A stretch of 59,125 nt of DNA, the filler included, from Catajapyx aquilonaris (taxonomy: Eukaryota), in NCBI GenBank assembly GCA_000934665.2. It is 2 parts of 2 records of this genome, joined end to end, with 100 filler letters (N's around TTAATTAATTAA, not from the genome) between each part and the next. Parts side by side here need not be neighbours in the genome. Positions count along the whole stretch, not along the records: positions 29,640 to 59,125 come from JYFJ02004786.1; 1 more part is not named here. One strand, written 5' to 3'. The notes beneath the pieces were generated by a model that was not told where the DNA came from, did not search any database, and saw only the letters and a list, made by a program, of their open reading frames with translations. Of the stretch, positions 28,115-59,125 are shown one piece after another. Position 1 is the first letter of the stretch. Every line of letters starts with the position of its first letter. Position numbers and translations under genes: made by a program.

Positions 28115-28241
28115 GTAAGTGCAACCCGGCCAATCCCATTGCCTATCTGATCATGTCAGTCTTGAACACTATTGTGGCGGAAAATACCATATGTGACATG
28201 CTTAGTAGAACTCATATCAACTGACATTTCTTTTCCCACAG

Positions 28242-28523
28242 CAACAGTCCCACATGGTACAATTGTGCTTCCTGAGGGAAGTGACCTGGAGATATTTTGT
28301 CACCTCAACCCTAACCTTGAAAGAACTAGAGGCAAAAATTCTAGCGACATGAGCTTCTATTGTAACCAGGAAGAGCTGAATTGGACGCTGGTGACCCCGA
28401 TAAATAGCACCACCATACGTTTATTTATTGCCAACGTGTCCCACTCATATGACTCCTACACCTGCAAGGTCAAGATAGGGGATTCTCCAGAGGGAGTGTG
28501 TAGAAATATGGTGAAAGTTGAAA
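28242..28523 (+). CDS. Cytokine receptor (Domeless-like), N-terminal Ig-like domain exon
   Basis: cag|...a|gtgagt, phase 1-1. P.G.IVL.EGS.LEIFC.LN...NSSD.SF...INSTTIRL.I...Y.CK...VC.N.V.V resembles arthropod type I cytokine receptor N-termini. Several N-glycosylation sequons. Confidence 0.75.
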
Positions 28524-29286
28524 GTGAGTATTTGGGTTTCCCGCTACATCTCCTTTATTATCCCTATTTGTATATCACTTGTGTTGGCACGAACACCATG
28601 TTCACAAGAAAAAGTTTAGCCAGTATACTGGACAGTTTGTCAAGAAATGTCCTCCAATTTCTCGACAAGGCATGAGGATAAAGTTTGGAACACTCATTGC
28701 TTGACTCAAAACAACTCCCAGGCAAATGACTCTCCAAAAATTTGTTATAGCCTATAATTTATAGGTAGAAGACATTTTTATATAATACTAGCAGGTTACC
28801 CGGCGTTGCCCGGGTATGTTGGGGTGCTGGTAAAGATAGGGGTACATATTTGTGATAGATTACCTGCTTGTCTTATAGCGTACAGTCGACACGGATATTC
28901 TGATTGGATGTGTAAAAGGAGGAATGCGGATGGAGTTGGCCCAGGAAAAGACTACCCTACACAGCCATGTGTTTTTTCCCCTGCATTTTTGANCACTTCA
29001 CACCCCCACCTCGTTCCATAATTATGTTTGCTCTGAAGAACTTTAGAAATGTACGTACAGATGTATGATGGGAAATTTTGTTTTCAACACGGAGTAATAT
29101 TTTGCAAGTACTATATTATTTAATTGTATTTACCTTGTCTGGAAGTCTAGTTTCAAATCCCACAAAATCCCAGAATTACCATAAGATACGATGTCACGTG
29201 AGGTGGCCAATTAGCGTAATTGGTGGAAGCGCTGAATTTACGGAGATGGTTTAATTTGCTAGGTATTGTGGCATAAGGGCATTTCC

Positions 29287-48429: not shown

Positions 48430-49901
48430 TTAATTCCCGGTTGAACAAGGAGGGTGATACTCGTTTCCCGAGCTAGGCACCATTGCTAGTTCTTGTCCAG
48501 GAGGACACTGGCCACTATACATAGGATTTCCCCCAGGTGCAAAACTAATCTGAGGCACATATTCATACCAGTAGCTCTCGCCTCTGCCTTGAGCGGACAC
48601 ATCACTAATTTCAGTCATGCTCCCTGGCGGTCCAGAAGAGTACACTTGCCTACCTGGTACCTGCATTGCATACCCCTTTTCCTGATTCTGAGGGCAATGA
48701 GCCTTCCAATGCTTCCCTCCACAATTTGGACAAGGGTAGGGTGGGTCCCTAACCTGGCCTTTCATTGGACACCTGTTGATAAAGTGGTCTGTACTTCCAC
48801 ACCTAAAGCAAGCACCCGTTGCCTTCTTGGGCACCTGAGGACATTGCGGAAGCAAATGCTGATCTGAATTACATCTATAGCAACGTGGCTTGTTCCTATT
48901 TGCTTTCGGTCTAACCCCACTTTTTCCTAACTCATCCTTGACCTGGAGAGGAGCAACCACCGCCTGTTTGGCTTCCTCCCACTTCTTTGTTGCCTCCAAC
49001 CACTTCTTTGTTGCCTCCAACTGATACTCCTCCAGTTGATTGTAAGCATTGCCACCTTGTCTGTCAACTGGCCTACAACATCTATATCATCATTCTCACA
49101 AGCCAACAATACCCTATTTCTCGGCTTGGTTCCTATCAAACCGCTCTTCTCATTGGCCTCACACTCTAATGCTATCCTAATAGCTCCTGAGAAATTGGCT
49201 GGCTTCAGAATTTGCAATGTGTGCCGTGTCCTTTCTAACTGCAATCCTGACCTGAATTGTGACAGTACTAACAGCTCTACAGTCACTATATCCTTGGGAG
49301 CATCCCTACACCCCTGTAATTCCAGTTGCATCTTTCGAAACTCAGTCACAAATTCATTAACACTCTGGGCCACTTCTTGCCTTATGCCCTTAACATCCCC
49401 AATGAGTTCCGAGAACCTACGGCTAGGACTAAACCTCTCCAAAAACAAAGCCTTGAATTTATCCCCGTCTCTTGCTGTTTGCACTTCTGGAGTAAACATG
49501 GCAAAGTCAGCAGCAATGCCTCCCAGCTTCAATTTCACACATCTGATTTTGTCCTCGCCTGACCACAACGACATGTCTCCTGCCAATTAAATCTGCTCCA
49601 AAAATCCCCTGGCAGATTCAGACGGCATGCCTTCAAAGCCACGAATCGACATCATCATACTTGTGTTAATCTTACTATGCGCCTGATGGTCCCTATCATT
49701 CAGCTCTTGGTTTCCCAAATTCGGCTGCCGGAGCTCCCTACCATTATGCTCATTGTTGCCATTGTTGGTCCCATTCCCAACCGTCTCCTCCTCAGTTGCA
49801 GCCGGGAACTGCCATAATTCCAAACTCTCTAAGTCAAGCAAATTAACACCCCTCTGAGAACCTGCCATTTTGAAGCTAACTTTCCTCCCGTCACTACACA
49901 A
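48430..49901 (-). pseudogene. Ty3/Gypsy gag, disrupted by one in-frame stop (49587-49589) and one frameshift (about 49020)
   Basis: Capsid-like FEG...ARGFL / F.ALFLERF / QSVNEF..E / F.SGL, and CCHC knuckles CYRCNSDQHLLPQC, CFRCGSTDHFINRC and CPNCGGKHWKAHC. Confidence 0.85.
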
Positions 49902-50910: not shown

Positions 50911-52445
50911 ACACACGGCCCATCACGTAGGCTACAAAAATGCAAACAGTATTGTAAGAAATTGGCCAGCCATCTAATGAATAACCTAATAAAACGAGCA
51001 GAACTTAATTCGTCATGATGTCGGGAGGAATGGGACGTCCCATACCTCACTGCCCTGCTTTGTCCCATTCCTCCCGAATAGCTCAAAATTGTAAAAATGG
51101 CTGGCTTGCTTTTACAGAAGGAAGCATGGCAGACTATCATATCCAGCTTTATCTCAGGAAACATACACCATCCCACAGCCCCTTGTTCGACAAGTCTATC
51201 TGCATTATATGTACTTCAAACTGCATTCAAACATTATAACAAAAACTTGCTTCTTAATGGCCAAATCACTTATTTTATACCAGGCTGAAAACCTCTTCCA
51301 CTAACTCACAAGCTCAGACTGGAGTTGATGCCTAGTGACACCTACCAGCCACCAAGTGCGAACTTGCTAGCACAAGAAAGCTGAAGGTGTCCCATACCTC
51401 CCCCGTCCCATACCTCCCGACTCTCCCCTATTGTTCCAAAGCTCCGACTAGGATGAGTGCGGGCACGAAGCCCCCCCTCCTTAAATACGTACATCACGCC
51501 ACTAGGCGGCACCACAGACGAGGTCGCGGGGGATGAATGCCGAAACCACACACTTGGTCCCGCCCCCACTTAAAAAAAAACTTGAAGCGACACCGCTCCA
51601 ACGCACCTTAAAACAATTTCAAAGAGCACAAGGACACTGCCTAAACAAGTTCAATCCGTGCACTATCAGGCACAAAAAGTTCAATCCGACGGCAGCACAC
51701 ACAGCAGCGCTGCACCACCTTACTCCTGCATGACCCGTTCTTCATCCGACGTAGAAACGTCGTCTGGCCGGCCATCCCCAGCGACGTTGTCACCAACCAG
51801 ATTCCACCCCGGAATAGGCGGAGGCACCGCAGACGAGGTCGCGGGGGATGAATGCCGAAACCACACGCGTGGTCCCGACAATACCGAGCAATGGCGCTTG
51901 GAGGTGTGGCTTGAAATTCTGGTGTCTGGTGCGGGCCACTCCATTGTTAGGGGTTTTCCAGGAAGTGGTTCATTCTGCATGATTCCCTCCGCAGTGGCAT
52001 AGCATTCGACACGCTTTGCTGACATATTTACGAAGTGCTTCCTGAGATCACGGTCTCGCGAAACATTTCTCTGCTGGAAGGCATACTCGCATGGCAGCTT
52101 GTGCTGATCCCAGAGTAGACTGGCAACAGTGTGCGTCCATCGTCTTTGTGGCAGAACATGCACCCCCCTTGCGCTTTTGGAACGGTCACCACACTTGTAG
52201 GTTGATTCAGTCAGTCGAAGTTCCTCCCATATATGCGGGGTGATGTCACAATGAAGGTCTTCGTCGGCCTTACTGCAGTCTGTCCAGAGTCACTGCTGTC
52301 ACTGTACTTTTGCACATCTTCAGACTCCGAGTCGCTGACGAGGGTGACGGTGTCTGCTTGTATCCCCAGAAGTGCCTGAAACTCCGTCCTTACATCCCAC
52401 CGGTCCTGTCCTCATTCACGCAGACCCTAGCATACTTGGGTGTCA

Positions 52446-53005
52446 TCAAACCATCCAGGAGTTCACTAATATCATGTAGTTAGCCGGGGGAACTGGACTG
52501 CCATCACTCTGTAGGATACCCTGGACCTCATGAAGAACGCTCAGAAACTTGTCCGCCGTCGAGGTCAATTGTGGATTTGCTGCAGCTTGGAGGTCTTGGG
52601 CTGTCTCGGCCCCCGAAGTACTGGCAGTAACGGCAGCAGGTAAATCGGAGGTGGTTGCACCCCCTAACGATTCCTGCGCAGTGCTCACAAGTGCTTCCAG
52701 CTGCCCGACTCCCTCTTGGAAAGTAAGAACGAGCGTCGGAATTGCGTTCGCAAAGTTCTCCAGGCCCTGGGCAGCTGATCCTATCGTCGCAGCTGTCTGG
52801 CTCGTGATCTCGGTTAACGATGCAGTCGAGATGATGGAAGAGGCTGTCGTCGCAGTTACAATCCTTGTCGCTTGATTCACTGCTCTGGCGACGCTGGCGC
52901 TTTTCTTTGCCGCTGTTGTTATCGACGCCGCCCACTTGTCCAACGTCGACTGGCCGCTTAGCGGAGGTGGCTCGAACCGGGGTTTCTTGGCTGGTGGTCC
53001 ATCCG
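52446..53005 (-). CDS. Parvoviral NP/NS2-like ORF overlapping the NS1 3' end (predicted second exon)
   Basis: Open alternative frame DGPPAKKPRF...LDKWAAS...WMV-stop with no ATG near its 5' end, preceded by acceptor tttcaatag at 53006-53014. Confidence 0.6.
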
Positions 53006-54405
53006 CTATTGAAAGTATACAGATACATGCGATTCCTAAGTGGTTGCTCCTGGGCCGTACAATAATGCCAGGGATAATGATTACAGGTTATGATAATAGG
53101 AGTTCTAGGAAGGGTTTGGGACCCCTTGTTCTTGATGGCAATGGACGCGGGCATGCCTTCAAAGATGAGTTTGCACGTTTCGGCCGTCTGGATGTTAATG
53201 AGAGGCTCTTCCCAGAATGCAATGTCCGAGTCCAGGGCGTTCGCGAAGCTAAAGTGATTTTCGTTCAGGAGCTCTCCGACTTTAAATAATCCCGTGAGGC
53301 CCCGTATGAAGGCGGATTTGCCGGTATTACTTGGACCGTATAGACAGATGACATTTTGTTTGGTATCGTCTTTCTGAATCCACCGCGCAAAGTCAAAATC
53401 GAAGTCGTCTGTATTAATGTCCTGGTGCTCCAGAACCGCGTGGATGGTACTTGGATCCGCCGAGTATTTATCGAGGATATGTTTTACCGATCGCCCGGTA
53501 TGTTCCTGACGCAGGTATCGACGGCAATTGTCTACTACACCATGCTGATTTGGATAGGCCACGTATTGCATCGCGAATGCGGGATCTACTTTGCATATGG
53601 TGTCAAAATCGTGTGCTCGATGTTCTCGCATGATGCTAATAACTTTGGTAACAAGCGGATTAGTTTTCTTTTCGGTCGGATCCCATAATGCTTTTCCCGA
53701 TCCCGCGCCGCTAGCCATGTATGCCATGTCTATGAGCTGTTCGCTGGTTGTAAGCACCTGTATAGGCTGTTTCACGATGTATTTGAATATTCCCTGGAAG
53801 CTATTGACCCGCTGCTGTTTGATCGCTCCTATTATGCCGCAAGCCGATGCCTTGCCCCAAATGCGACGATGCCATGCGTCCGTGCGCATGGCCGTTTTGA
53901 CAAGGGCGTGACAGTGGTATTTACCGCGGTCGTTCACCTCTGTTACCATAATGTATGTTTCCAGATGGGGGCCGTGATTACCCATGAGGGTTAAAATAGT
54001 CTCGAAATCCAGTATGTCATCTATGTTATCGTATTCCATAACAACGCTAAGCCAGTCTTTGGAATTGTATTCCTGGAATGCCTCGTCCATATTTATGTTC
54101 CACTCGCCCGCCCAATCAACGCGTTCCAGGCCCGTCCCTAATCGTCCATTGTCATCAAGAATGTGGCAGCGATGGAGCCAGGGTGACCCGAGCAAATCCT
54201 GCTCAAGAGTGGGTAATTTTCCTCGGACGGGATTTCGAACAATCGGTACCACTGGAGCCCTTGGATTCCCAACCCCGATATCAGCCCCCTCAGCGTCGCC
54301 GTCTTGTATTGAGTCGGCAGATGAACGAGCAGCAGCTCCGGCGCTAGTGGGACTACCTTCGCTCCAACCAAGAACCTTAGAACGCCCTCGATGTCTTCCA
54401 GGCAT
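52528..54405 (-). CDS. NS1: Endogenous parvovirus NS1 replicase (Hamaparvovirinae, chaphamaparvovirus-like), intact 625-aa ORF from the first ATG
   Basis: HUH endonuclease (GKYHCHALV; FKYIVK) and SF3 helicase (Walker A GPSNTGKS, Walker B FWEEP, motif C IIITCN, plus FEGM...K.K...LPRTP and YPW.YCT..E..LRNRM). Confidence 0.93.
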   Translation of the reverse strand: MPGRHRGRSKVLGWSEGSPTSAGAAARSSADSIQDGDAEGADIGVGNPRAPVVPIVRNPVRGKLPTLEQDLLGSPWLHRCHILDDNGRLGTGLERVDWAGEWNINMDEAFQEYNSKDWLSVVMEYDNIDDILDFETILTLMGNHGPHLETYIMVTEVNDRGKYHCHALVKTAMRTDAWHRRIWGKASACGIIGAIKQQRVNSFQGIFKYIVKQPIQVLTTSEQLIDMAYMASGAGSGKALWDPTEKKTNPLVTKVISIMREHRAHDFDTICKVDPAFAMQYVAYPNQHGVVDNCRRYLRQEHTGRSVKHILDKYSADPSTIHAVLEHQDINTDDFDFDFARWIQKDDTKQNVICLYGPSNTGKSAFIRGLTGLFKVGELLNENHFSFANALDSDIAFWEEPLINIQTAETCKLIFEGMPASIAIKNKGSQTLPRTPIIITCNHYPWHYCTAQEQPLRNRMYLYTFNSGWTTSQETPVRATSAKRPVDVGQVGGVDNNSGKEKRQRRQSSESSDKDCNCDDSLFHHLDCIVNRDHEPDSCDDRISCPGPGELCERNSDARSYFPRGSRAAGSTCEHCAGIVRGCNHLRFTCCRYCQYFGGRDSPRPPSCSKSTIDLDGGQVSERSS

Positions 54406-54512
54406 TCGGACAGTTTCTTGGATGACCCGGTGCACTGGACAAGAGAAAGAATGATAGTGCACGTAGATTGGGGTTCGCTAGACATGGAGGCCATGCGTTT
54501 TTTAGCGGCCAT
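54138..54512 (-). CDS. Small 124-aa parvoviral ORF overlapping the NS1 5' end (p15-like position)
   Basis: ATG-initiated and stop-free. Size and position match the small ORF overlapping the NS1 start in chaphamaparvoviruses. Homology not verified. Confidence 0.55.
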   Translation of the reverse strand: MAAKKRMASMSSEPQSTCTIILSLVQCTGSSKKLSECLEDIEGVLRFLVGAKVVPLAPELLLVHLPTQYKTATLRGLISGLGIQGLQWYRLFEIPSEENYPLLSRICSGHPGSIAATFLMTMDD

Positions 54513-54820
54513 GAGTACTCACTGTCTTTAGGCTTTGAGGTTGTTGACCTCGCGGGCAACTCCCGATTGGGATTATTGTGACGCCACAGAAGATATGTGC
54601 GGATGTTTCCCAGTTGCTGCGCCGCCCACTGCGTTTCTACAGTCCAGGTTCGCAGAGGCTCCGGGCTGTCCAATATATCCTGCCACACACGTAACTGTTC
54701 TTGAAAACCCAAATCCGGATTGAAACTGTCTGCTAAATCCGGTAAGTATTGTAGATGCCGATACCCGACGTTGACGTAATAATCTCTTATAGCTCCGGAC
54801 TGTTTGGGGTTTCGAGCCAT
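54377..54820 (-). CDS. First parvoviral ORF (147 aa unspliced; 54523-54820 is the predicted first exon of NS2/NP)
   Basis: ATG directly after the CAGT initiator; internal donor GACA|GTGAGT at 54522. Confidence 0.55.
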   Translation of the reverse strand: MARNPKQSGAIRDYYVNVGYRHLQYLPDLADSFNPDLGFQEQLRVWQDILDSPEPLRTWTVETQWAAQQLGNIRTYLLWRHNNPNRELPARSTTSKPKDSEYSWPLKNAWPPCLANPNLRALSFFLLSSAPGHPRNCPNAWKTSRAF

Positions 54821-54854
54821 ACTGGCCGTGTAATCTATGTACTCCCTTATATAG
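54821..54854 (-). promoter_or_regulatory. Viral core promoter (TATA plus Inr)
   Basis: Minus-strand TATATAAG at 54853-54846. CCAGT initiator with its A at 54823, 30 nt downstream, abutting the ATG at 54820. Confidence 0.65.
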
Positions 54855-55072
54855 CCTTTATCGTGTGTGGTGCCGTGCTAGCCGCGGGTTGCCCGTCTAC
54901 TAGGGGTCGGTATCTACAATACTACACATACACACAGGCACGCCGAAGGAGGGGACCAGAGAGGGCCTCCGGTCGTACACTGAAAGCGAGATGTAAGAGG
55001 GGCTCTGGCAAGGGTTTTTAGACAAGGGGGTGGTAGCGGTGAGGGAGCGGACAGGGATTGGAACGAGTTCAA

Positions 55073-55384
55073 TCAAGGGTCTGCGGGGGAGGGGAGGGGG
55101 GAGGACCAGGCGGAGCTTGGCGGGGAGGAAAGGTGGAGGAGGAGGAAGGGGCCTGCTGCTGGGTGGTGGGCGGCGGCCTGGCGAACCAGTTCTTGATGCC
55201 AACGCTTGGCAGCCTCCAGTCGGATGACCGCTCGGAGTGCCACCTGGTTGGAGTACTCCCGGTCAATGGCTTCCTGGGCAGCGTCGGCGGCGATCTGGTC
55301 GGAGTTTTGCTGCCGCTTCTTAGCCCGGGTCTGTTGGCCGCCCCGGCAGCCCCGCTTTGTCTTGTTGGTCTCTCCTTTTGGCAT
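55073..55384 (-). other. Basic 103-aa ORF of unknown function
   Basis: ATG start, KRGCRGG basic N-terminus and helical-looking middle. No family recognised. Confidence 0.3.
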
Positions 55385-57441: not shown

Positions 57442-58899
57442 TCAGATGGGGTCTTTTTTTTCTTCCGCCCAACCGGGAGGAAAAAAAAAAATGCGAGTAA
57501 CTCCACGGTATGCACCGCGCATTACTTTCTCNTACTTTCTCACAACGGCACCCCGCGGGGGCACATATTTCTTTAAGTCCGAAATATGAATTGGTCCGAA
57601 AACCTTTTTCGTGACCGGGTTATGCAACATGTATGAAACATCATGCACACGTTTAACCACGTCGTATGGACCATCATACTTATGCGCGAGAGCTCGTGTG
57701 AACCCTTGCGCCGCGTTTGATAGCGCGTGACATTTACGCAGTACCAAATCACCAACATTAAAAATGCCATGTCGTCTTTTGCGATCATAATATTTTTTCT
57801 GTTTTTTCCGTTCCGCAATAATGCGGGCACGTGCAAATGCAATTGATTTCGCCATACGGAGTTTTAGACCGTCTGCATAATCCCGCACCTGCTCCTCTGA
57901 TGCATTATCTACTGCCTTAAGATATTGCGACTCAAACGGGAGGAGGAACTGCCTCCCTGTTGCTAATTCAGCGGGGGAGTAGCCACTCACAATGGATGGT
58001 GATGAACGCCATGCGTACATTACCGACCCCAATGTCTTACACCAATCATGATGCTCATGAGTGTAAGCGATTAACAGCCGTTTAATTTGGCTATTTACCG
58101 TTTCTGTCATGTTTTGCCATGGGCTGTATACGTTCGAAAACGATGCTTTTATGCCCAACGCCGCACATGTTGACATGAATATTTTCCCGCGGTAATACTT
58201 TGCATTATCACCAATTAATCTTTTCGCGTAACCATGATGCGTACAGAAGTCTACCAAACACTCAGTAACCTGAGTCCGAGCGCATACTCTCGTTAAAGGG
58301 TATGCCTCAAACCATTTTGACAGCTTACATACGATCACCAGTATGTATTTCTTGCCCCCTTTGCTGCGCACCAGGGGGCCGATGACGTCAGTGGCAATGT
58401 CGGCAAATGCTTGGACAGGTGGCTCGCTTGGTTGCAACAACCCCGGAGGCTTACACCTATCCACCGTTGTCCTCTGGCAAAGGTCGTATCGCTTCGTGAA
58501 GTTCATTACATCTTTTTTCTGGCCGATCCAAGAAAACAGGTGCCTCATGCGTTTGATCGTACGGTACGATCCCCAGTGTCCAACCTTATTGTCGGAATGA
58601 TAAGCATGCATGACCTTGTCCCTCATTGCCCGAGGAACAATGACCTTGAACGGGTTATAATCTGGCGAATTACCAGCTTTTTCACCCCCGGGGATATACT
58701 CAGCAATGAGCCCGGAATTATTGATCAGGTACATGTGCTGGTCCGTCTTAAGTCTCGCAATGGCACCTGCGTCCATTTCCACGCCGCGGGCTCCTTGTAG
58801 GTGCTCCCGCAGCGCTTTTAAATCTGCGTCAACTTTTTGACATTCCAGCAATTCCTTGAGATCAATGCCCCCAGTCCCCTCGTCACGGAGTGGAGACAA
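57442..58899 (-). mobile_element. Ty3/Gypsy integrase region (pol 3' part)
   Basis: Zinc-binding YH...GHWG...YDLCQ (first Cys replaced by Tyr). Catalytic DIATDV / GDNA / MTE. C-terminal KYDGPY.V...HISDLKKY. Confidence 0.92.
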
Positions 58900-59125
58900 G
58901 ATGGCGTCGGAGCAAGATCAGCTCTAACGGTCGCTCTTCCGGCAGTCTTGGCGACAGGAGACGAGGGACTTGTTTGGTCCTCGTGTCTGTGCTGGTGGCA
59001 CTCCGGTGGCCCCGACGTCCTTTTGGAGATCCGTCCCGCCTCGGGGCGCGAGGGGACGGGGTTTTTGTGCCCCTTTTTGGGCCTGGGCCTAGTGTGTTTT
59101 GTTGTTGTTGTGGCAGGGGGAGAGA

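Follow-up and report, generated by a model that had tools for sequence, protein, structure and literature searches.

A 59,125-nucleotide (nt) stretch of the Catajapyx aquilonaris genome assembly GCA_000934665.2, hereafter the window, which joins parts of two records end to end across 100 filler letters, carries on its minus strand a block of largely parvoviral sequence at positions 54853-52446, in the part taken from record JYFJ02004786.1 (positions 29,640 to 59,125). This block comprises a TATA box, open reading frames (ORFs) of 147 and 124 amino acids (aa), a stop-free 625-aa nonstructural protein 1 (NS1, or Rep), and an overlapping 3′ ORF. With a probability of roughly 0.85, it represents an endogenous parvoviral element (EPV), namely, the germline-integrated, 3′-truncated left part (about half) of an undescribed arthropod chapparvovirus-like genome. 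What survives of that genome would be its promoter region together with two orphan 5′ ORFs, an NS1 whose nuclease and helicase domains are both complete, and the beginning of the overlapping NP ORF; the NS1 C-terminal region, the C-terminal part of NP, and all detectable capsid (VP) sequence would have been lost.

NS1, NP, and the chapparvovirus-type lineage

The NS1 frame opens at an ATG at 54405 and stops at 52528, and would encode 644 aa if counted from an upstream GTG at 54462. Its features, and those of the 3′ ORF that overlaps it, are as follows.

52528..54405, minus strand: NS1/Rep ORF, 625 aa; viral to about 52554, last seven codons and stop in host repeat
53701..54093, minus strand: HUH endonuclease (origin-binding) domain of NS1, about residues 105-235, from motifs, alignment, and model
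53916-53899, minus strand: HUH motif HCHALV, residues 164-169, read from the sequence
53781-53767, minus strand: catalytic tyrosine motif YIVKQ, residues 209-213, read from the sequence
52996..53508, minus strand: SF3 helicase domain of NS1, about residues 300-470, from Pfam, PDB matches, and Foldseek
53337-53314, minus strand: Walker A motif GPSNTGKS, residues 357-364, read from the sequence
53217-53203, minus strand: Walker B motif FWEEP, residues 397-401, read from the sequence
NS1 residues 415-418, minus strand: FEGM, read from the sequence
53097-53077, minus strand: motif C IIITCNH, residues 437-443, read from the sequence
52446..53087, minus strand: NP-homologous ORF in the +1 frame over the 3′ part of NS1; virus-derived 53087-52551, last 34 codons and stop in host repeat
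52551..52673, minus strand: conserved NP core GAT..DLPA...TAQDL.AA..PQL...D, from blastp and alignment

NS1 is a parvovirus Rep in which an HUH/Tyr nuclease and an SF3 helicase form a two-domain fold. Pfam assigns it to Parvo_NS1 (PF01057, E-value 1.1e-18) and to the papillomavirus E1 helicase family (PF00519, 2.6e-9), and a PDB sequence search returned Rep40/68 of adeno-associated virus (AAV) and NS1 of parvovirus B19 (B19V) at about 1e-10. Its motifs occupy invariant or near-invariant columns in an alignment of 70 chapparvovirus-type NS1 proteins and agree with the consensus of that alignment, with H164, H166, Y209, and K212 invariant throughout. An AlphaFold2 model built from the same alignment has a predicted local distance difference test score mostly of 85-98 over residues ~105-470, and is disordered at residues 1-76 and 474-625. 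The top Foldseek match of this model is full-length AAV2 Rep68 (E 7.8e-18 over 445 columns, covering nuclease and helicase), with Rep40 (template modelling score 0.67-0.69, target-normalised), B19V NS1, and papillomavirus E1 helicases among the further matches. Because the Pfam assignment stands at 1.1e-18 and the best homologue at 4.2e-63, the relationship lies far beyond chance. The original prediction, an earlier reading of this stretch from its sequence alone, had described a stop-free 625-aa NS1 with all HUH and SF3 motifs and a helicase wording typical of chaphamaparvoviruses; both descriptions hold for the protein as analysed here, with the motifs located, the Pfam family assigned, and the wording in agreement with the 70-sequence consensus.

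In a search of 5.8 billion protein clusters, 17 proteins passed, and each of the 10 that bear names is an NS1 labelled chapparvovirus, chaphamaparvovirus, or Hamaparvovirinae, with identities of 28-38% across 23-61% of the query. Over the searches taken together, the named best matches stand at about 33-37% identity. An exhaustive search of 1.84 billion representatives yielded 979 matches (best E 4.2e-63, at 34% identity) confined to NS1 residues ~105-490, with residues 1-100 left unmatched. The named neighbours are Army ant associated chapparvovirus 1 and 3, "Luscinia cyane Ichthamaparvovirus", and amniote chaphamaparvoviruses; a further neighbour, a genomic "hypothetical protein" of Nephila pilipes on a 56.9-kb contig, is presumably an insert itself. 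The best NS1 matches, at 2e-58 to 4e-63 and 32-36% identity over residues ~105-490, are those to army-ant chapparvoviruses 1 and 3 and to unnamed metagenome contigs of 3.4-4.2 kb (P0001, P0053, P0018, and P0020), with which the N-terminal 100 residues and the tail of this NS1 do not align. These are free viral genomes of unknown host, recovered from a predator-based metagenome (bioRxiv 10.1101/2022.12.13.520061). Whole-protein identity is 22-28% (alignment A1) and identity over the matched core 32-37% in most full-length matches; short fragments aside, NS1 is without a relative above ~37% over the matched core among ~15 billion public proteins. A scan of IMG/VR retrieved six loci with the alignment as query and none with the single protein.

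In a FastTree phylogeny with 137 rows, the query and the army-ant viruses fall into one group (support 96). A second tree, computed in IQ-TREE under LG+C20, has 45 rows, consisting of the query, the NS1 of one IMG/VR genome (L001, introduced below), and 43 of the 136 other proteins in the FastTree phylogeny (at least 450 aa). It places the query within a 39-row chapparvovirus-type clade, with a Shimodaira-Hasegawa-like approximate likelihood ratio (SH-aLRT) of 98 against six outgroup rows, all of them unnamed or bat-faeces parvoviruses; with outgroup rows thus limited, NS1 falls inside the group where the original prediction expected it. Genera are delimited, under the criterion of the International Committee on Taxonomy of Viruses, at an NS1 identity of ~35-40% with high coverage, together with monophyly. 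With respect to Chaphamaparvovirus and Ichthamaparvovirus, this NS1 falls below that level, and it has no supported grouping with either genus in the IQ-TREE tree. Judged by its sequence, NS1 belongs to the chapparvovirus-type lineage (Hamavirinae, formerly Hamaparvovirinae), and as to lineage the assignment is clear; the source virus would be an undescribed lineage with no close known relative. From the "undescribed invertebrate hamaparvovirus" of the original prediction there remains an undescribed chapparvovirus-like lineage, whose NS1 reaches at most ~34-37% identity with anything in the collections searched, and the tree gives no support to placement in a named genus. The element would represent a further deep branch of this group, which among invertebrates is documented chiefly by fossils and by metagenomes from faeces. 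According to a recent account, the subfamily Hamaparvovirinae has been renamed Hamavirinae and now contains four vertebrate genera (PMC13426907).

The assignment draws on the 3′ ORF as well. This ORF extends for 213 codons from stop to stop, with no ATG near its 5′ end and with Met codons only in its last 34, host-derived codons, and it begins near NS1 residue 440, after motif C, in the same place as the NP of relatives. These relatives include five chapparvovirus genomes of 4.0-4.4 kb from IMG/VR (L001-L005), which share a monosense layout of small 5′ ORFs, an NS1 of 654-807 aa, and a VP of 364-496 aa; in L002-L004, a +1-frame ORF of 213-249 aa, equivalent to NP, starts just past helicase motif C. 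When the NP ORFs of L002, L003, and L004 were searched against the window by tblastn, they matched positions 52700-52551, 52673-52551, and 52676-52551, respectively, all in the frame of the 3′ ORF (E 1e-6, 5e-7, and 9e-6). By blastp, the NP core is identical at 22 of 41 positions (E 8e-9); its identity is 50-54% over ~41 residues with L003 and L004, and 30% over 80 residues with L002. A hidden Markov model (HMM) of NP scores the 3′ ORF at 1.2e-7 and no other piece of the window below E 1. The openness of the frame is only weakly significant, as 89 of 2000 shuffles of synonymous codons stay open for at least as long as the real frame does (185 codons), and the case for NP therefore rests on homology. 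On this evidence the 3′ ORF is identified by sequence as a homologue of the chapparvovirus NP ORF, of which roughly the initial 60% remains. An NP of ~220 aa that overlaps rep has been described from nearly all chapparvoviruses as well as from inserts in arthropods, and in some viruses it lacks a canonical start codon (Pénzes et al., 2019, Viruses 11:525, PMC6631224), as does the ORF described here. Homology to NP is a lineage-specific trait and as such counts for chapparvovirus-type identity.

The gene order of the block, with small 5′ ORFs, NS1, and a +1-frame NP after motif C, is that of the amniote chaphamaparvoviruses and ichthamaparvoviruses as represented by L001-L005 and by the published mouse kidney parvovirus and Syngnathus scovelli chapparvovirus (PMC6631224). 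The original prediction had recognised this small-ORF/NS1/NP layout as typical of chaphamaparvoviruses; its NP is borne out by tblastn, blastp, and HMM homology, whereas its small 5′ ORFs are without detectable homologues and match in position only. In contrast to this shared order, NS1 is only 28-31% identical to that of L001-L005, the 5′ ORFs are not homologous, and the element lacks VP as well as the C-terminal ends of both NS1 and NP. Conservation of the NP core, though not of the NS1 tail that overlaps it, between this arthropod element and viruses of amniotes supports the view of NP as an ancestral, constrained gene of the lineage.

Boundaries of the viral sequence

Three features mark the edges of the viral sequence.

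52552..52554, no strand assigned: 3′ breakpoint between viral DNA and host repeat, from the end of NP homology and paralogous read contigs
51887..52553, no strand assigned: host repeat family at ~3-7 times single-copy depth, paralogues 3-7% divergent, CpG-depleted
54938..54981, no strand assigned: 44-nt stretch common to other loci at ~4-5 times depth, from read contigs

NP homology stops at 52551, directly past the conserved core, and paralogous read contigs agree with the window up to 52553 before they diverge into unrelated sequence; since these two boundaries concur, the breakpoint is placed at 52552-52554. It follows that host repeat supplies the final seven codons of NS1, the final 34 of the NP frame, and the stops of both. 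In relatives, NP continues for ~100 more residues to a conserved WWCWGKP...W.G.WAP end, and NS1 for ~125 more, including a conserved C-terminal P...DW..YL.YL motif that is absent here. Two claims of the original prediction thus need revision: the block is not an intact non-structural half, given that viral sequence ends at ~52552, within the NS1 tail and the NP core, and the change in sequence character put below about 52440 occurs at ~52552-52553, as both the read contigs and the end of NP homology indicate.

The host repeat reaches a depth of 127-189 in run X1 (against 27), its paralogous contigs differ at 12 of 172 and 7 of 220 positions, and its ratio of observed to expected (o/e) CpG is 0.60-0.63; Pfam holds no family for it. 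A simple insertion into the repeat was considered and rejected: an 18-nt motif from the continuation of the paralogues is absent from the window at up to three mismatches, so that the repeat does not resume beyond the insert with its other half. Most likely, non-homologous end joining would have linked the viral fragment to host DNA within a region rich in transposons, an origin suggested by a 3′ break that abuts host repeat and by other copies of the repeat that have no virus there.

In a read contig of 2472 nt, positions 52496-54967 are reproduced with zero differences in each of three runs, and the contig extends 57 nt into the host repeat. Its other end lies within the 44-nt stretch at 54938-54981. 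Read depth over the block is 27.4, 16.3, and 34.7 in the three runs, against 24.2-27.9, 11.2-13.4, and 22.8-41.5 for unique flank contigs, and the window holds 52 kb of host DNA on one side of the block and 4 kb on the other. Because block depth equals unique-flank depth, the block is taken as a single-copy integrated element and not a free virus, which would not be expected to track single-copy host depth; and because the genome is cut inside NS1 and NP and is without VP, its replication would be impossible. Beyond this contig, at 54968-55105, no read contig equals the window, and the sole contig over ~55016-55101 departs from it by several substitutions and a 2-nt insertion and is shallower (17.5, compared with 27, in run X1). 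The discrepancy may reflect an allele, a paralogue, or an error of local assembly within the C-rich stretch that adjoins the insert.

No capsid gene was detected. With the VPs of five relatives as tblastn queries, no match in the window is better than E 0.79; of 1562 six-frame pieces scored with an HMM of VP, the top one reaches E 1.8; and the probability returned by hhalign is 0.3%. Pfam has no family for the VP of relatives. These results agree with the earlier statement that no VP-like ORF follows. The absence of VP is expected for a truncated insert and has no bearing on ancestry.

Age, origin, and competing explanations

Of the 52 NS1 columns in which 13 or more of 15 relatives share a residue, the block retains that residue in 49, and the 15 relatives themselves, mostly free viruses, keep 43-52 of 52-55. 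CpG o/e is 1.04 in the block as against 0.66 in the rest of the window, where 522 equal-sized windows have a mean of 0.64, a standard deviation of 0.16, and a maximum of 1.07. (One other 2.3-kb stretch of the window reaches that value of 1.07.) All four overlapping frames are open, as first described; in simulations of neutral substitution, comprising substitutions only and no indels, they stay so in 30% of cases at 1% divergence, 8.5% at 2%, 2.6% at 3%, and 0.3% at 5%. The insert is therefore either younger than ~2-3% neutral divergence, a bound below the 3-7% by which copies of the flanking repeat differ from one another, or under selection. Open frames, 49 of 52 conserved residues, and undepleted CpG together argue for a young insertion, and the recent integration put forward in the original prediction is accordingly probable. 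Most likely, the block would have been inserted recently, be neutral, and serve no function in the host. Any transcription of it would give rise to a truncated Rep and NP, each ending in a short tail encoded by the host, or else to antisense and small RNAs. Since the insert looks young, its parent virus may still circulate in the host.

Elements of this kind have precedents. Chapparvovirus inserts are "relatively common in arthropods", and 13 have been described from arachnids, chilopods, and hexapods, mostly as rep fragments, some with intact frames, among them the 690-aa NS of ChPV.2-LatHes, which seems to be complete, and, from a dipluran, NP together with a rep that is intact though truncated at its C-terminus (PMC6631224). 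The present element resembles them as a Rep-dominated, chapparvovirus-like fragment in which NP overlaps rep, each published one having arisen from its own integration event; unlike most of the 13, which carry nonsense mutations, it has none in 1.9 kb (PMC6631224). In having an open Rep ORF in a host genome without a working capsid gene, it also resembles the Rep EPVs of degus and elephants and raises the same question of co-option (Campbell et al., 2022, PMC9707805). Those EPVs, however, are old, orthologous across species, and expressed, whereas the element described here is known from the sequence of a single insert. A survey of literature on endogenous chapparvovirus or chaphamaparvovirus elements of invertebrates and crustaceans found no description of it, although a prior description is possible. 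The element is a further case of arthropod chapparvovirus inserts, among which it is notable for being fresh, for having a divergent NS1, and for an NP core conserved between arthropod and amniote; as a single truncated insert, it leaves our knowledge of EPVs unchanged.

A number of observations weigh against a recently integrated chapparvovirus-like fragment. The three read sets come from one sample, probably that of the assembly itself, and are not independent of the window. The 5′ limit of viral DNA is only bracketed, between ~54860 and 54981. Of the two host-virus junctions across which the original prediction sought reads, the 3′ junction is spanned by a contig (57 nt, in three runs of one sample), but the 5′ side is bridged exactly by none. 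A search of 54855-55110 for a terminal hairpin found none (fold against shuffles, z 0.45), nor any terminal palindrome. The mixture-model tree puts the query on a 1.64-long branch in a basal polytomy and does not recover the army-ant grouping; it contains no named Penbrevirinae, Hepanvirinae, Densovirinae, or Parvovirinae, and exclusion from the first three rests on best matches and NP. A weak VP-like pattern, G.H..P...W.H......W, lies on the minus strand at 52190-52110, just downstream of the breakpoint (HMM E 5.8, second best of the 1562 pieces). Finally, selection would account for the intact frames and the retained TATA box no less well than youth does.

Selection is the substance of the alternative to which we give most weight among those that we consider unlikely. 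According to this alternative, a truncated Rep, or Rep together with NP, with tails encoded by the host, has been co-opted and kept by selection, and might block the replication of related viruses or serve a host DNA transaction. The four open overlapping frames, the 49 of 52 conserved NS1 positions, and the retention of both the TATA box and an initiator-like site would all agree with such domestication, for which the intact, expressed Rep EPVs of degus and elephants provide precedents (PMC9707805); but youth alone accounts for the intact frames and undepleted CpG, the NS1 tail conserved in relatives is absent, and no AATAAA or ATTAAA occurs on the coding strand between 52700 and 51000 or within 1.5 kb downstream. 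A working host gene, in which an expressed, promoter-bearing truncated Rep and a shortened NP, both completed by a few codons of host repeat, act against a circulating parent virus, for instance as a dominant-negative helicase or nickase or as a source of small RNA, is likewise doubtful; if true, it would be a young arthropod example of parvovirus Rep domestication.

Less probable still is that the multi-copy stretch below 52553 represents old, decayed chapparvovirus DNA (the end of NP and the start of VP) from earlier insertions, which the young NS block adjoins or with which it has recombined. What speaks for it is the VP-like pattern, which sits in a 189-codon frame (52289-51723), with its strand correct and its distance close to that expected, and aligns with the most conserved N-terminal VP motif, together with reports of several independent, close-by insertions in some arthropods (Pénzes et al., 2019, PMC6631224). 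The match is not significant, however, with hhalign and tblastn negative for VP as described above; the paralogues are unlike virus above 52553; and the stops of NS1 and NP come in the opposite order to that seen in relatives. The pattern is regarded as chance. Least probable of all, and very remote in our estimation, is exogenous virus DNA misassembled into a host contig, whether as contamination or as a chimera. Chapparvovirus sequences in animal assemblies have at times proved to be contaminating virus, as in the pipefish (PMC6631224), and this explanation would accommodate a 5′ junction with no exact bridging contig. Against it stand a block depth equal to that of single-copy host flanks in three of three runs, the 57 nt by which a read contig enters the host repeat with zero mismatches, the truncation of the genome in NS1 and NP without VP, which would leave it unable to propagate, and the negative search for a terminal hairpin.

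Promoter region, 5′ ORFs, and genomic surroundings

The 5′ part of the block has the following features.

54846..54853, minus strand, starting at 54853: TATA box (TATATAAG), by direct sequence reading
54819..54825, minus strand, with its A at 54823: CCAGT initiator-like site, by sequence reading, of putative function
54377..54820, minus strand: 147-aa orphan ORF, by ORF call, in the position of chapparvovirus ORF1
54138..54512, minus strand: 124-aa orphan ORF, by ORF call, overlapping the NS1 start

The A of the CCAGT site is 30 nt downstream of the TATA start and 3 nt ahead of the first ATG, and the three 5′ frames (147 aa, 124 aa, and NS1) are each in a different frame. The TATA box, initiator-like site, ORF sizes, and coordinates originally given for this region are all correct on the minus strand.

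The 147- and 124-aa ORFs occupy the places of ORFs of 77-91 and 130-136 aa in relatives. By hhalign, neither shows homology to the 5′ ORFs of relatives; a search of a 5.8-billion-protein database returned no homologue of either; and all scores for the 147-aa ORF in Atlas are below 0.9. Compared by tblastn with the N-termini of 154 related NS1 proteins, the 5′ ORFs gave a best upstream match of E 0.002, which is out of frame. The chapparvovirus-like character of these two ORFs is thus positional only.

A candidate splice donor, GTGAGT, lies at 54522 within the 147-aa ORF, and a candidate AG acceptor at 54139-54138, upstream of the NS1 core. Together, they may splice codon 100 of the 147-aa ORF in phase to NS1, whose N-terminus would then consist of the first 99 residues of that ORF; joining in phase has one-in-three odds by accident. 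The predicted donor and acceptor borders are 54523|54522 and 54138|54137, respectively. Two inverted repeats occur in the same region. One (53129-53147/54143-54161) has 19-nt arms that are 95% complementary and 995 nt apart and connects the helicase region with the terminal part of the 124-aa ORF, and the other (54745-54761/54907-54923) has 17-nt arms that are 94% complementary and 145 nt apart and brackets the TATA box and first ATG. By rough estimate, both are longer than chance would give in 4.1 kb.

The insert lies in transposon-rich DNA. Remains of Ty3/gypsy type in its neighbourhood are a gag with a zinc knuckle at 48433-49586 on the minus strand and an integrase ORF of 491 codons at 57445-58917, also on the minus strand, with Integrase_H2C2, rve, and SH3_Tf2-1 domains. 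In the host flank, a 58-nt direct repeat (51505-51562/51820-51877; 93% identical, 315 nt apart) encodes in one frame a recurring "...VWFRHSSPATSS..." peptide. Elsewhere in the window, an open frame on the plus strand at 28166-28672 has weak Ig-like matches (Lep_receptor_Ig, 7e-4; Ig_2, 1e-3), both below Pfam cut-offs, and is a possible host exon.

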